This document shows positions 15,851 through 24,578 of a stretch of 64,000 nucleotides of DNA, one piece after another (within the stretch, counting starts at the first letter, position 1; each line of letters starts with the position of its first letter). Origin of the DNA: Betaproteobacteria bacterium (GTDB taxonomy: Bacteria; Pseudomonadota; Gammaproteobacteria; Burkholderiales; Methylophilaceae); contig VGIC01000004.1 in the NCBI GenBank assembly GCA_016867975.1, positions 11,252-75,251 of the forward strand, read 5' to 3'. The position numbers and the translations under genes were made by a program. The notes under the pieces were generated by a model. It searched no databases and was not told the DNA's origin. It saw nothing but the letters and a program-made list of their open reading frames with translations.

Positions 15851-17122
15851 CTAATCCAGCTTTTCTATGCCCATCGCCTTGAGAATGTACTTCTCATACA
15901 CCGGCTCGCTGGTGCCTTTTTTCATTTTGTAGATAAAATATTTCTCAAACGCAATCTTGGCGAAGTGCACCCACTTACCTTTTTTAACCCAGCTGTCATT
16001 GCGCGGTGGAATCTGAGGTATAGCCACAAATGCCGCCCCTGCATCCCCCATATCAGCGAGACAGATCGCGTTCCAGGTACCTTTTGCATCGGCAACTTCT
16101 CCGGCAATATCTGCGGCTATATTATGTACAATCGCTGTAACCATGGATTCAATCATATAGCCGGTCTTGGGAGCGCCTGTCGGAATTGGTGTCACTTCTA
16201 CCGGCGGAATAGCAACGCATACACCGGCAGCAAATATATTGCGATATTTTTTGCTGCGTTGATGTTCATCAATCATCACAAAACCTCTGGGGTTGCATAA
16301 CCCCTCAACCGCAGCCACCGGATCTATGCCTTTGAATGCTGGCAGCATCATGGAGTATTTGAATGGCAGCTCATGCTCTTTTATCACATTGCCGTTGATA
16401 TCATGCTCAGCGACATACATCTTACCCGCTTCAACTTTGGTCACTTTTGCATTGGTAATCCATTTCACATCGATATTTCGATACTCGGATTCCAGCATGC
16501 CTTTTGAGTCACCCACGCCGCCTAAGCCAAGATGGCCGATATACGGCTCACTTGTCACATAAGTAATAGGCACTTTGTTACGTATTTTTCTCTTGCGCAA
16601 ATCACGGTTGATAATAAAAGTGTACTCATAAGCAGGGCCAAAACAACTTGCTCCTGGCATTGCACCAGTAATGACAGGTCCTGGATCTTTCAGGAATTCC
16701 TGGTAAGCACCCCATGCCGATTCTGCATGATCTGTCGAGCAGATTGAATGGGTGTAACCGCCATGCGGACCAGAACCAGGCACTTCATCAAACGCTAATT
16801 TAGGGCCTGTTGTAATCACCAGATAATCATAACTGAGTTTCTCGCCATTAAGTAACTGCAAAGAGTTCTCTTCTGCATTGATCTTACACACTGGCTCGGC
16901 GATAAAATGTATGCCTTTTTTCTCAAGATATGGACGAATTGGAAATGTAATCTTTTCGCGCTTACTCCAACCGACAGCCAACCATGGGTTGGATGGCGTA
17001 AACTGGAAGTAATCAACAGCGTTGACGACTGTAATTTTATGTTGATTGCCAAGCTTAGCTTTAAGCTCATAGGCGGTTGGCATGCCACCAATACCGGCGC
17101 CAAGGATTATGATATGTGCCAT
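15851..17122 (-). CDS. sqr: Sulfide:quinone oxidoreductase, type I (SqrA)-like
   Basis: GAGIGG FAD motif; three conserved Cys in [12 protein letters not shown] and NAICLADMG; [10 protein letters not shown]; amphipathic C-terminus. Closely resembles recalled Acidithiobacillus/Rhodobacter SQR. Confidence 0.95.
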
Positions 17123-17157
17123 TCCAGACTCCCTGATTGAATTATTTTCTAATTGGA

Positions 17158-17790
17158 TTATTGAGTTACTGCTAAATTATTGGGCGCTTCATCAGCCAAG
17201 CGATAACTAATAGAAATAGCCCCGCGAATCTGACCAGCACGATAACCTACGGCCTGATCCAGCGGATACTCTTTCGAGAGTAAAGCTTTGACACCTGCGG
17301 AAATATCTGCCGACTGCCCATGACATTGCAAACACATCGGCTGTGCAGGGATGGCTTTCATATAGCAAAAAGCGCGGCCATCAGCCGTAGAGGTCACTTT
17401 CGTCACTTCCATTTCAGCAGCAGACTTGCCTTGTTGCTGCTCTGCATCAAAATTTTCCAGCACCGTTTTCTCCCATGCGTCAGGGGTGCCTTGCACGGTA
17501 TTACATACCTTGAGAGAAACGCGTTTTACGGTTCTGCCATTTTGTGAATACTCAGCCGCCAAAGCAGGTGCAATCTGTTTACACACACCTATGGCGCTCT
17601 CCGCGCCACCCGCCAGTTGATTTTTTAGCGCACCGCCCAAAGTCTGCATAAACGCCTGTGCCACCTTTCTACTCTCAACCAAATACTTTGCATGTTCAAC
17701 GTCACTACCAGCATATACAGGCATCACCCATGTCATCATGAGCGTAGCCAATGACCCTCTCCATGAGAAAAACTCTAATATCTTATTCAA
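17158..17790 (-). CDS. Periplasmic DUF3365 (Tll0287-like) c-type heme protein
   Basis: Signal peptide, [24 protein letters not shown] (CXXCH), [17 protein letters not shown]. Confidence 0.8.
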
Positions 17791-17799
17791 TTTTTACTC

Positions 17800-18192
17800 C
17801 TACAACCTTGTCTGCGCCGTCTGCAACCCATCGCTAACCCACGCATTGATACCCCCAGTCAGATTATATACCTGAGTAAATCCTGCCATCTGCAATTTGA
17901 TGGCGGCTTTAGCTGAACGTTTACCACTACGGCACTGCACGATGACCGAGCTATGTTTATATTGAGCGAGTTCGCTCAATCTTTGCTCCACCTGTGCAAG
18001 CGGGATATGAATCGCACCCGTAATATGTTGCGCCTGCCACTCATCTAATTCGCGAACATCGAGAATAATCGCTTCTTTACTGGCAACCATTGATGCTGCC
18101 TGCCTAGGGGAAACTGACGCCAACTCTGAAGAGCAAGCAGATAAAAATACTGATCCAATTAACGCCAAACTGACAGTACAGTTTTTAAACAT
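17800..18192 (-). CDS. Single-domain rhodanese (sulfurtransferase) lipoprotein
   Basis: Lipobox FLSA-C; LDVRE..EW...HITGA; active-site loop CRSGKRS; NLTGGINAW. Confidence 0.9.
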   Translation of the reverse strand: MFKNCTVSLALIGSVFLSACSSELASVSPRQAASMVASKEAIILDVRELDEWQAQHITGAIHIPLAQVEQRLSELAQYKHSSVIVQCRSGKRSAKAAIKLQMAGFTQVYNLTGGINAWVSDGLQTAQTRL

Positions 18193-18211
18193 GCCACTTC
18201 CCTTTTATTCA

Positions 18212-23039: not shown

Positions 23040-23054
23040 GTCAATTTAATGAAA

Positions 23055-24086
23055 TTACTTAAAGTTTGCTGCCGAGATAGGATCAAGTGCAATTTTTTCA
23101 CCGGCTTGCAAACCTGAAAAAACCTCAATGTTATCGCCCTGTTTTCGACCTAATCTTATCTGCCGTAACTGTGGCTGTCCTTTACTGTTCACCACATACA
23201 CGGCTGTTAACTCGCTACGTTTAACCACTGAGCTTGTCGGCACAATAATTTGAGGGGGTGCGTCACTCACAGCCACTGGCAACGCTGCACGTGCGAACAT
23301 GCCCGGACGCACGCTGGCAAGCCCTGGTGGCAAAGTCACACGAACCTTCACCATATTGCTCACCGCATCAGTTGTCGGTAATACTGTCACTTGTGTGCCT
23401 GTCAAACCACGCTCAGTTTCTATTGCAGCAGGAATCGACACCTGGATGCTTGTATCTTGCTTAATTTGTACTAACTGGCTCTGTGGCACATTCACGACTA
23501 CGCGTAACGCTTTGGGGTCATAAATAACCAATAGTGGCTTACCTGGCATCGCCATATCCCCCTGCTCAACGTTGACTTCAGCAACCAAGCCGGCATAAGG
23601 TGCATTAATAGTATGCAAACCAGTCTGCACATTAGCTGCACCTGTTTGTGCCAACTGCACTTTAGTTTGCGCCTCAGCTGCCTTGTAATCAGACTCTGCC
23701 CGCTCTAATGCCGCTTGACTGATATATTGTTTCTCATACAGGCGGCGTTTACGCTCAAACTCCTGACGCGCTGCATTCAACTGCGCATTGGCAGCCGTAA
23801 CCCGTGCCTGATTGGAGATTACTTGCTGATCGGCAATACGCATATCAATCCGTGCCAATAACTGCCCTGCTTTCACATAATCACCGGCTTTCACCGACAG
23901 TACGGTGATACTGCCTGCAACCTGTGGTGCAATTAAACTGGATTTAATCGCTTCAACCGTGCCTTCAGCTGTAACTGTCTGTGCCTGATGATGCGACTGT
24001 ATTGTCACCGTGGACAGCCCCGCCGCCCAAGCTACATTTAAACAGCCAGAAATTACCACCAACGCTATCAATAATGTTTTATTCAA
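23055..24086 (-). CDS. RND periplasmic adaptor (membrane fusion protein)
   Basis: APQVAGSI..VKAGDYVKAGQLL lipoyl motif, alpha-hairpin, INAPYAG, RPGMFAR. Confidence 0.92.
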   Translation of the reverse strand: MNKTLLIALVVISGCLNVAWAAGLSTVTIQSHHQAQTVTAEGTVEAIKSSLIAPQVAGSITVLSVKAGDYVKAGQLLARIDMRIADQQVISNQARVTAANAQLNAARQEFERKRRLYEKQYISQAALERAESDYKAAEAQTKVQLAQTGAANVQTGLHTINAPYAGLVAEVNVEQGDMAMPGKPLLVIYDPKALRVVVNVPQSQLVQIKQDTSIQVSIPAAIETERGLTGTQVTVLPTTDAVSNMVKVRVTLPPGLASVRPGMFARAALPVAVSDAPPQIIVPTSSVVKRSELTAVYVVNSKGQPQLRQIRLGRKQGDNIEVFSGLQAGEKIALDPISAANFK

Positions 24087-24127
24087 GTCATCCCCTATTT
24101 ACAAATTGCTTCTTTGACCAAAGTATG

Positions 24128-24155
24128 CATAATATATTACTGCATAGTTATATAG
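24128..24155. promoter_or_regulatory. Probable ArsR operator in the divergent arsR/efflux promoter
   Basis: CATAATATATTACTGCATAGTTATATAG, an imperfect palindrome between the two divergent starts; near-copy at 11642-11669. Confidence 0.65.
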
Positions 24156-24191
24156 TCAAACAATAAATTTTGTGTATAATGATTCTCGCAG

Positions 24192-24578
24192 ATGGACGAC
24201 GGATTTAATTTGATAGAAGAAAAAATGAGCGCATTGGATGACAGAGCACTTGAACATGTCGCCAGATACTTCAAAGCCTTGGCGGAGCCAATGCGATTAA
24301 AAGTATTAAGCGCCTTGCGGGACGGTGAAAGAAATGTTGGTGAGTTAACGGAAATCTCGGGCGGTTCACAAGCCAACGTGTCAAAACACCTGTCTTTGCT
24401 CACCCAATACGAATTAGTGAAACGGGAGTCTCGCGGCACTAGCGTGTATTATAAAATTGCCGACCCCAGCGTGTATACGCTGTGTGAATTAGTTTGCGGG
24501 CAAATCGGCAACCGATTGGCAGAGGCAGATGAAATCAAAAAACTGTTTTTACCCGACAACAAAAACAATTCAATATAG
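24192..24578 (+). CDS. ArsR/SmtB-family repressor with a C-terminal CxxxC
   Basis: FKALAEPMRLKVL, VGEL, SQANVSKHL winged HTH; only Cys are C98 and C102 (LCELVC). Confidence 0.92.
   Translation: MDDGFNLIEEKMSALDDRALEHVARYFKALAEPMRLKVLSALRDGERNVGELTEISGGSQANVSKHLSLLTQYELVKRESRGTSVYYKIADPSVYTLCELVCGQIGNRLAEADEIKKLFLPDNKNNSI

Follow-up and report, generated by a model that had tools for sequence, protein, structure and literature searches.

How does the zero-valent sulfur made by sulfide:quinone oxidoreductase (SQR) leave the cell? Neither this exit nor the extracellular deposition of sulfur by bacteria with an outer membrane has an accepted molecular answer, and the disposal of excess sulfane sulfur by cells is likewise an open question. 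The matter is raised by a seven-gene operon in a 64,000-nucleotide stretch of DNA (the window; contig VGIC01000004.1) from a 1.56-Mb metagenome-assembled genome (MAG) of the Methylophilaceae, which is 92.7% complete and finds its closest named homologues in Methylotenera. In this operon the genes of a complete resistance-nodulation-division (RND) efflux pump stand together with that of a type I SQR, and a reading made from the sequence alone had proposed that the pump exports the sulfur that SQR produces. The comparative analysis described here makes it very probable that the pump family is functionally coupled to defence against sulfide and reactive sulfur. That the operon is a sulfide-induced module whose pump removes the zero-valent sulfur made by SQR is, in our judgement, an even call; the cargo, the membrane side on which SQR acts and the role of the small DUF2892 protein are matters that we infer.

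The operon comprises seven minus-strand genes (15851-24086) separated by gaps of 9-35 nt. From the promoter onwards they encode a membrane fusion protein (MFP), the RND permease, the DUF2892 protein, a TolC-family channel, a rhodanese lipoprotein, a Tll0287/DUF3365 haem protein and the type I SQR, and an ArsR gene is divergent from them across a 105-bp spacer. Open reading frame (ORF) calls and family scans bear out this packed, divergent layout as the sequence-only reading described it, and the gene content likewise confirms its remark that the operon holds no dioxygenase. The gene calls and hidden Markov models (HMMs) were made for this analysis and are crude.

For a survey of gene neighbourhoods, 140 loci were fetched and scored by tblastn, purpose-built HMMs and ORF clustering, the DUF2892 HMM being built from ORFs of <130 aa. 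Class-level matches to the RND permease showed a bimodal distribution, orthologues lying at 55-69% identity and paralogues at ∼45%. A FastTree phylogeny of 141 RND proteins separated a clade of 57 (local support 100), containing the window pump and all loci of the order Burkholderiales, from a sister group of 83 belonging to other gammaproteobacterial families. In 53 of the 56 clade loci (two of the three misses are at a contig edge) DUF2892 is encoded no more than 7 kb from the pump, versus 5/84 sister loci, and it is the signature partner of the clade that contains the window pump. The other neighbours in the 56 clade loci were ArsR (43), rhodanese (27), TrxC (19), TolC (16), SQR (15), cytochrome bd (7) and a Blh-type persulfide dioxygenase (PDO; 3). 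Linkage to sulfur genes is overwhelming in this RND clade; it is one of two checks that came out in favour of the sequence-only proposal, the other being sulfide induction of a look-alike operon, described below. The gene families of the operon recur around RND homologues in ∼100 of the ∼230 loci examined, and this gene set is found together far beyond chance. The pump is patchy within the host's family (17 of 121 genomes) and was found in none of the six sampled genomes of the same genus. The genes flanking the operon in the window, mutS and suhB, were found beside it in no fetched relative locus, which fits an accessory module.

The association with SQR itself was measured in 300 genomes of the order, the same set being searched for pump and SQR; the sample was evenly drawn and its members are not phylogenetically independent. 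Of the 105 genomes with the pump, 64 had SQR as well, as against 21 of the 195 without it (85 genomes with SQR in all), giving an odds ratio of 12.9 (Fisher p 1e-19, phylogeny uncorrected). In 25 of the 64 genomes holding both, SQR lay within 12 kb of the RND gene, against a chance expectation estimated at <1. SQR was directly upstream of RND, at 5-416 bp, in 18 genomes (19 copies, one genome having two), and MFP-SQR-RND-DUF2892, seen in fetched loci L122 and L142, is the commonest linked arrangement. The window's placement of SQR, downstream of RND and on its strand, was found in six genomes. SQR and pump are linked in at least six gene orders; those met additionally among 80 named loci were SQR-MFP-RND, RND-SQR-DUF2892, RND-DUF2892-SQR and RND-DUF2892-TrxC-TolC-SQR, in hosts that include Gallionella, Polaromonas, Hydrogenophaga, Limnohabitans, Derxia, Ideonella and Aerolutibacter. 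The window's own order recurs in two cultured strains, Novimethylophilus kurashikiensis (GCA_003112435.1) and Noviherbaspirillum sp. UKPF54 (CP040128.1).

On annotated plasmids, RND homologues with no more than 35-42% identity to the window pump share neighbour families with the window; in the 10 such loci examined, DUF2892 was present in seven, ArsR in six and a clear SQR in four. Beside the MFP-RND genes of Methylocella tundrae p1 lie genes for a rhodanese, two ArsR, two DUF2892 and SQR (56% identical). The neighbours are TolC, DUF2892, SQR, rhodanese, ArsR, DUF3365 and cydABX on the conjugative plasmid pISP1 of Sphingomonas sp. MM-1 (L226); SQR, DUF2892, rhodanese and ArsR on Azospirillum brasilense p2; and DUF2892, SQR (39% identical), ArsR and rhodanese on a plasmid of the cyanobacterium Pseudanabaena sp. 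ABRG5-3. Plasmid 1 of Paracoccus denitrificans PD1222 (L231) carries an MBL hydrolase, two DUF2892, a YeeE-type transporter pair, a sulfurtransferase and ArsR in these positions, and a conjugative plasmid of Legionella pneumophila (L234) carries ArsR, TolC and DUF2892 (60% identical, the RND being at 35%), the MFP not being annotated. Next to the RND homologues on Alloyangia, Shinella and Flammeovirga plasmids neither DUF2892, ArsR nor SQR was found, and there were no plasmid or phage homologues at ≥60% identity. Conjugative plasmids are thus among the carriers of the module. On three of the plasmids (L226, L234, L231) DUF2892 is 57-60% identical to the window copy and the RND 35-41%; because its identity stays high where that of the RND drops, DUF2892 is the more constrained partner.

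A published experiment bears on the induction by sulfide that was proposed for the window operon. In Azospira suillum PS, Dsui_3440-3443, encoding a hypothetical protein, an RND protein, SQR and an MFP, form the sole operon flagged by Bar-seq (Mehta-Kolte et al. 2017, PMC5358917). Their log2 expression rose from ∼1-4 to 8.6-10.6 with H2S, about 100-fold, and a separate Azospira DUF2892 gene was induced ∼10-fold (PMC5358917). Sulfide induction is thus on record for a look-alike operon of matching gene content and order; the Azospira locus was not among the 80 named loci compared. Li et al. (2025) noted that two-Cys ArsR proteins are often encoded beside RND pumps ‘likely’ moving sulfur compounds, and their table puts R. 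capsulatus SqrR itself beside an RND transporter (PMC12423496). The association of pump and sulfur genes is already mentioned in passing by two papers, neither of which tested function. The literature search found no paper testing a substrate for this pump, and nothing on it in work on A. caldus SscR, P. putida selenite or A. vinosum transcriptomes.

Alignment of 50 partner ArsR proteins gave three types. Two of these, together the majority of the partner regulators, have one Cys in helix 2 and one in helix 5, the pattern of BigR, SqrR and YgaV, in which the two residues form a tetrasulfide bridge; BigR is their best or second-best NCBIfam match, at 77-103 bits and below the cut-off of 155. 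The window type has only a helix-5 LC[DE]LVC motif, invariant in 14 loci. The sole cysteines of the window ArsR are C98 and C102 (LCELVC, helix 5); the helix-2 Cys is absent, the protein scores 40.8 bits with the BigR model NF040642 (cut-off 155), and it lies outside the BigR/SqrR/YgaV subfamily as defined by paired helix-2 and helix-5 Cys. In the alignment C102 falls on the helix-5 Cys of the two-Cys types, and C98, one helical turn away, could stand in for the missing helix-2 Cys. The LC[DE]LVC variant (window, L003-L007, L017, L103-L106, L109, L112, L114, L117, L135) holds the same operon position as the canonical two-Cys BigR/SqrR-like regulators.

Within the spacer, promoter-like sites stand back to back, at 24159-24131 on the minus strand and 24153-24180 on the plus strand, and a candidate ArsR operator at ∼24126-24159 is flanked by the two elements of the pump promoter, TTGACT at -35 and the -10 box. 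The layout of TTGACT, a ∼20-bp palindrome and a TAATA-like -10 recurs in 12 of the 14 loci with window-type ArsR (it was not recovered in L104 and L106), and a palindrome so placed would be the layout expected of a repressor acting on the pump promoter. An orphan ccoG gene is preceded by the palindrome ATAACTATATAGTTAT, similar to the pump operator, and CcoG is encoded in or beside the pump operon in L004/L223 (Novimethylophilus, TolC-SQR-CcoG), L005 (TolC-CcoG) and L142 (CcoG-MFP-SQR-RND). In a genome-wide scan with a position weight matrix the ccoG site ranks second, yet shuffled genomes reach an equal score, and ccoG is put forward only tentatively as a regulon member.

The pump itself has the marks of a hydrophobe/amphiphile exporter. 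The RND permease (1067 aa) matches PF00873 over residues 23-1055, and its fourth transmembrane helix (TM4) carries VDDAIVVVEN; a DD...EN motif of this kind is the proton-relay pattern of hydrophobe/amphiphile RND pumps, not of heavy-metal pumps. The ACR_tran fold, the acidic TM4 motif and an MFP and TolC above their cut-offs together place it among tripartite RND systems of that type. Its scores are under every curated NCBIfam subfamily cut-off: 453.9 and 348.6 for RND_permease_1 and RND_permease_2 (1250 each), 277.7 for the multidrug family TIGR00915 (940) and 228.6 for CusA/CzcA TIGR00914 (701). Amongst solved RND proteins MexK was the best match, at only 218 bits, with ZneA at 170 and AcrB at 158, and the earlier statement that this RND subfamily is without a characterised substrate holds. 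The MFP has the lipobox ISGC and matches the CzcB and CusB families below threshold. For TolC the likelier start is the ATG at 19612, which follows immediately on the DUF2892 stop, and the signal peptide starts at M8. The RND is Cys-free over its 1067 residues, as are the mature MFP and TolC; Cys depletion was considered as a sulfur signature and rejected, since it is common to the unlinked sister clade and one unrelated RND of the genome.

The DUF2892 protein (69 aa) has a GWC motif and forms a two-helix hairpin above the PF11127 gathering score, which places it in the YgaP-like_TM/DUF2892 family. Its sole structural relative is the transmembrane hairpin of E. coli YgaP, to which it matches weakly (2MPN, E 0.018). 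Residues G12, F40, G42, N44, Q47 and C54 are invariant in 110/110 pump-linked homologues, and the distribution of charges suggests that both termini are cytoplasmic. In many Burkholderiales the four-gene unit ArsR-MFP-RND-DUF2892 sits between envC/gpmI and the housekeeping cluster yibN(rhodanese)-grxC-...-gpsA (L010-L015, L121, L123, L124, L127, L129, L130, L132, L136, L139, L141); DUF2892, inserted before yibN, therefore abuts a membrane-anchored rhodanese, recalling the fused E. coli YgaP. Plain rhodanese adjacency was down-weighted as evidence, the rhodanese of ArsR-MFP-RND-DUF2892-rhodanese-grxC-...-gpsA being this membrane-anchored housekeeping YibN.

The SQR gives 612 bits with the A. 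ferrooxidans type I SQR 3SZ0 and 380 bits with A. aeolicus SQR, and retains the equivalents of the catalytic Cys128, Cys160 and Cys356, with SIC(S/T) and WNA(I/V)C(L/F)ADMGD conserved. This close similarity, the three catalytic Cys and an N-terminal FAD fold identify it as type I; it has no signal peptide. The host genome holds one SQR, one ArsR-family gene and one DUF2892. SoxB and a Blh-type PDO were sought in this 92.7% complete MAG and neither was found, so that no route for further oxidation of S0 is apparent. The rhodanese has the rhodanese fold with a catalytic-Cys loop, CRSGKRS, and is a predicted sulfurtransferase whose best sub-threshold NCBIfam matches include GlpE and PspE. In the DUF3365 protein the haem motif CLQCH aligns on CLACH of Tll0287 (5B82) and Cys70 on the axial Cys position; with CxxCH and a distal Cys, its sequence is that of a Tll0287-like c-type haem protein, probably His/Cys-ligated. 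It is a rare accessory, met also in L003, the Sphingomonas pISP1 plasmid and L218.

Table 1. Features of the SQR-pump operon, its regulator and the putative regulon gene (window coordinates)
Feature	Coordinates	Strand	Evidence
Type I SQR, last operon gene	15851..17122	-	Pyr_redox_2, 423 aa
Tll0287-like/DUF3365 secreted c-type haem protein	17158..17790	-	PF11845, 80 bits
Single-domain rhodanese lipoprotein	17800..18192	-	PF00581, 78 bits; lipobox LSAC
TolC-family outer-membrane channel	18212..19633	-	TIGR01844, 229.9 bits (cut-off 225.15)
DUF2892/YgaP-like_TM two-helix membrane protein	19614..19823	-	PF11127, 45.5 bits (cut-off 25.3)
RND inner-membrane permease	19836..23039	-	ACR_tran PF00873, E 2.6e-148
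MFP (periplasmic adaptor) lipoprotein, first operon gene	23055..24086	-	TIGR01730, 212.5 bits (cut-off 94.9)
Divergent promoter region with candidate ArsR operator	24087..24191	.	promoter-like sites, conserved layout
ArsR/SmtB regulator	24192..24578	+	NF033788, 85.8 bits
ccoG, possible regulon member	11642..13143	+	TIGR02745, 510 bits

A simple scheme can be proposed for how these parts would act together. Reactive sulfur arising from sulfide exposure would modify the Cys pair of ArsR (C98/C102 here, the helix-2/helix-5 pair in most relatives), and the modified repressor would come off its operator in the -35/-10 spacer of the pump promoter. SQR would oxidise H2S at the membrane, passing the electrons to quinone, and MFP-RND-TolC would take hydrophobic zero-valent sulfur (polysulfide, S8, polysulfanes) from the membrane or periplasm and expel it across the outer membrane. 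DUF2892 would serve as a small subunit associated with the pump, relaying or sensing sulfane sulfur through its invariant Cys, whilst the rhodanese lipoprotein and the Cys-ligated haem protein would be lineage-specific periplasmic helpers. The most economical choice of cargo is the zero-valent sulfur formed by SQR, which fits a pump of the hydrophobe type, a genome in which no downstream oxidation pathway was found, the periplasmic helpers of this operon and the SQR gene embedded between MFP and RND in relatives. In its strongest form, about which we are more doubtful than confident, the proposal makes the DUF2892-RND family the missing Gram-negative route for zero-valent sulfur (polysulfide/S8) out of the membrane or periplasm across the outer membrane, with SQR docking on the pump as an MFP-SQR-RND metabolon and DUF2892 acting as an obligate, Cys-dependent small subunit of a new type, one that relays sulfur or gates it.

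Several observations weigh against export of SQR-made sulfur. This SQR type is missing from 41 of the 105 pump-bearing genomes, and most pumps of the sister clade (58-62% identity) have no link to sulfur genes: 74 of the 83 in the tree stand in housekeeping synteny with a LysR gene, the other usual neighbours being PerM/AI-2E, PhoH, Bcp and ProS. By the positive-inside rule C54 of DUF2892 is probably at the cytoplasmic end of its second helix, a poor fit with periplasmic capture. TrxC and PDO neighbours indicate cytoplasmic handling of sulfane sulfur, and the linked rhodanese is periplasmic in only three loci (window, L003, L109), cytoplasmic in eight and the housekeeping YibN in many others. 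Type I SQR acts on the periplasmic face of the inner membrane in R. capsulatus, and we infer the same orientation here by borrowing from the literature on type I enzymes. Deletion of the Azospira operon left the rate of perchlorate-dependent sulfide oxidation unchanged (PMC5358917), and the Azospira pump is itself a look-alike, at most a putative orthologue of the clade pumps.

The observations on the cytoplasmic side would be met by a pump whose cargo is excess sulfane sulfur carried on thiols, as low-molecular-weight persulfides or organic polysulfides of the cytoplasm, in place of the periplasmic SQR product, with DUF2892 delivering the sulfur from the cytoplasmic face. The invariant Cys54 adjoins a C-terminal tail of positive charge and so probably lies at the cytoplasmic interface, and DUF2892 is homologous to the transmembrane hairpin of YgaP, a protein with its rhodanese domain in the cytoplasm. 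Among the genes that recur at the loci are those for cytoplasmic rhodaneses, TrxC and Blh-type PDO, and the core ArsR-MFP-RND-DUF2892 occurs without SQR in many genomes. We nonetheless think export from the cytoplasm unlikely: it sits badly with the insertion of SQR between the MFP and RND genes in the most frequent of the linked arrangements, with the rhodanese, haem protein and TolC of the window, all of them periplasmic or in the outer membrane, and with the usual capture of substrates by RND pumps from the periplasm or outer leaflet.

Co-regulation alone, in which a general efflux pump for hydrophobic toxicants is switched on with sulfide defence, carries no sulfur and uses DUF2892 as a structural, AcrZ-like part, has in its favour the LysR housekeeping synteny of the sister clade, devoid of sulfur genes, and the Alloyangia, Shinella and Flammeovirga plasmid homologues without sulfur neighbours. 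It is decidedly improbable, as it leaves unexplained the SQR gene between MFP and RND in eight family groups, the reassembly of the same gene set around 35-42% identical RNDs in other classes and phyla, and the 100% conservation of one DUF2892 Cys. A pump for some secondary effect of sulfide stress, such as metals or the metal-sulfide complexes to which Mehta-Kolte et al. saw induced RND pumps as a response (PMC5358917), can call on the classical metal sensing of ArsR/SmtB proteins, the sub-threshold CzcB and CusB matches of the MFP and a P-type ATPase near the Legionella plasmid copy, and is very improbable in view of the hydrophobe/amphiphile DD...EN motif in TM4, the low CusA/CzcA score, partner regulators with a persulfide-sensor Cys pair and no helix-5 metal ligands, and neighbours that are sulfur enzymes with no metal chaperones.

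Were the strongest form of the proposal to prove right, no RND pump before this one would have had a cargo that is inorganic and not a metal. A widespread RND family is now defined by its invariant-Cys partner; about one third of the Burkholderiales genomes sampled carry it, as do plasmids of other classes and phyla, and it is linked time and again to SQR and to regulators of the persulfide type. Culturable carriers in which the question can be put to the test are Azospira suillum PS, Paracoccus denitrificans PD1222, Novimethylophilus kurashikiensis and Noviherbaspirillum sp. UKPF54. Even if the cargo is not sulfur, there remain a sulfide-stress role and a new accessory subunit for an RND subfamily without a characterised member.

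Other sulfur and respiratory genes were seen in the host and at related loci. Positions 118-1778 of the window carry overlapping genes for a TAT-signal flavoprotein (423 aa) and a monohaem cytochrome c of 130 aa with the motif CAVCH, a pair that looks like the flavocytochrome c sulfide dehydrogenase FccAB and would be a second sulfide-oxidising route 14 kb from SQR. The genome, in which SoxB was not detected, also contains a SoxY-like/SoxZ-like pair at C7:50250-51006 (111.5 bits, under the cut-off of 125) and a 272-aa SoxYZ-like carrier at C27:3216-4034. Genes for cytochrome bd, a sulfide-insensitive oxidase, recur beside the module (L223, L107/L108/L110, L226); in L223 (Novimethylophilus kurashikiensis) ArsR is the first gene of a cydPABX operon that runs divergently from the pump, and TauE and a SorA-like molybdoenzyme are encoded close by. 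The hosts of the sister-clade loci (L018-L100; named loci L166-L215) include the sulfur oxidisers Allochromatium, Thioalkalivibrio, Thiohalocapsa, Thiothrix, Ca. Parabeggiatoa and Thiohalophilus.

Among known systems, the Azospira operon is the nearest in composition, having the same four families in the order MFP-SQR-RND-small hypothetical protein, the commonest arrangement here; TolC, rhodanese and DUF3365 are not reported for it, and its authors, who assayed the sulfide oxidation rate only, took the induction for a response to stress or to metal sulfides. The BigR/SqrR/YgaV operons (Xylella/Agrobacterium bigR-blh, the R. capsulatus sqrR regulon, E. coli ygaVP) likewise place an ArsR repressor with reactive Cys over sulfide and persulfide genes. 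They centre on PDO/Blh, TauE or PmpAB, and no RND pump in them is known to have been studied; the window ArsR differs in lacking the helix-2 Cys and having a helix-5 CxxxC, whereas the regulators of most relatives are canonical two-Cys proteins. E. coli YgaP is a rhodanese fused to a DUF2892 hairpin, and the window has the two as separate genes. AcrAB-TolC/AcrZ and CusCFBA also combine a tripartite RND pump, conserved in its TM4 proton-relay motif, with a small accessory protein, a membrane partner of one helix in the case of AcrZ and a periplasmic substrate carrier in that of CusF. DUF2892 is unrelated to both and, by gene linkage, a putative physical partner of its pump; the identity of the window RND to any solved RND is very low (MexK 218 and AcrB 158 bits over ∼1040 residues). 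The S. aureus cst operon (CstR; cstA, cstB, sqr, tauE) has a CsoR-like regulator, a TauE-type sulfite exporter and a PDO (CstB), and its host is Gram-positive and so has no outer membrane, but it sets a persulfide-sensing repressor over SQR, sulfurtransferases and an exporter, as the window operon is proposed to do.

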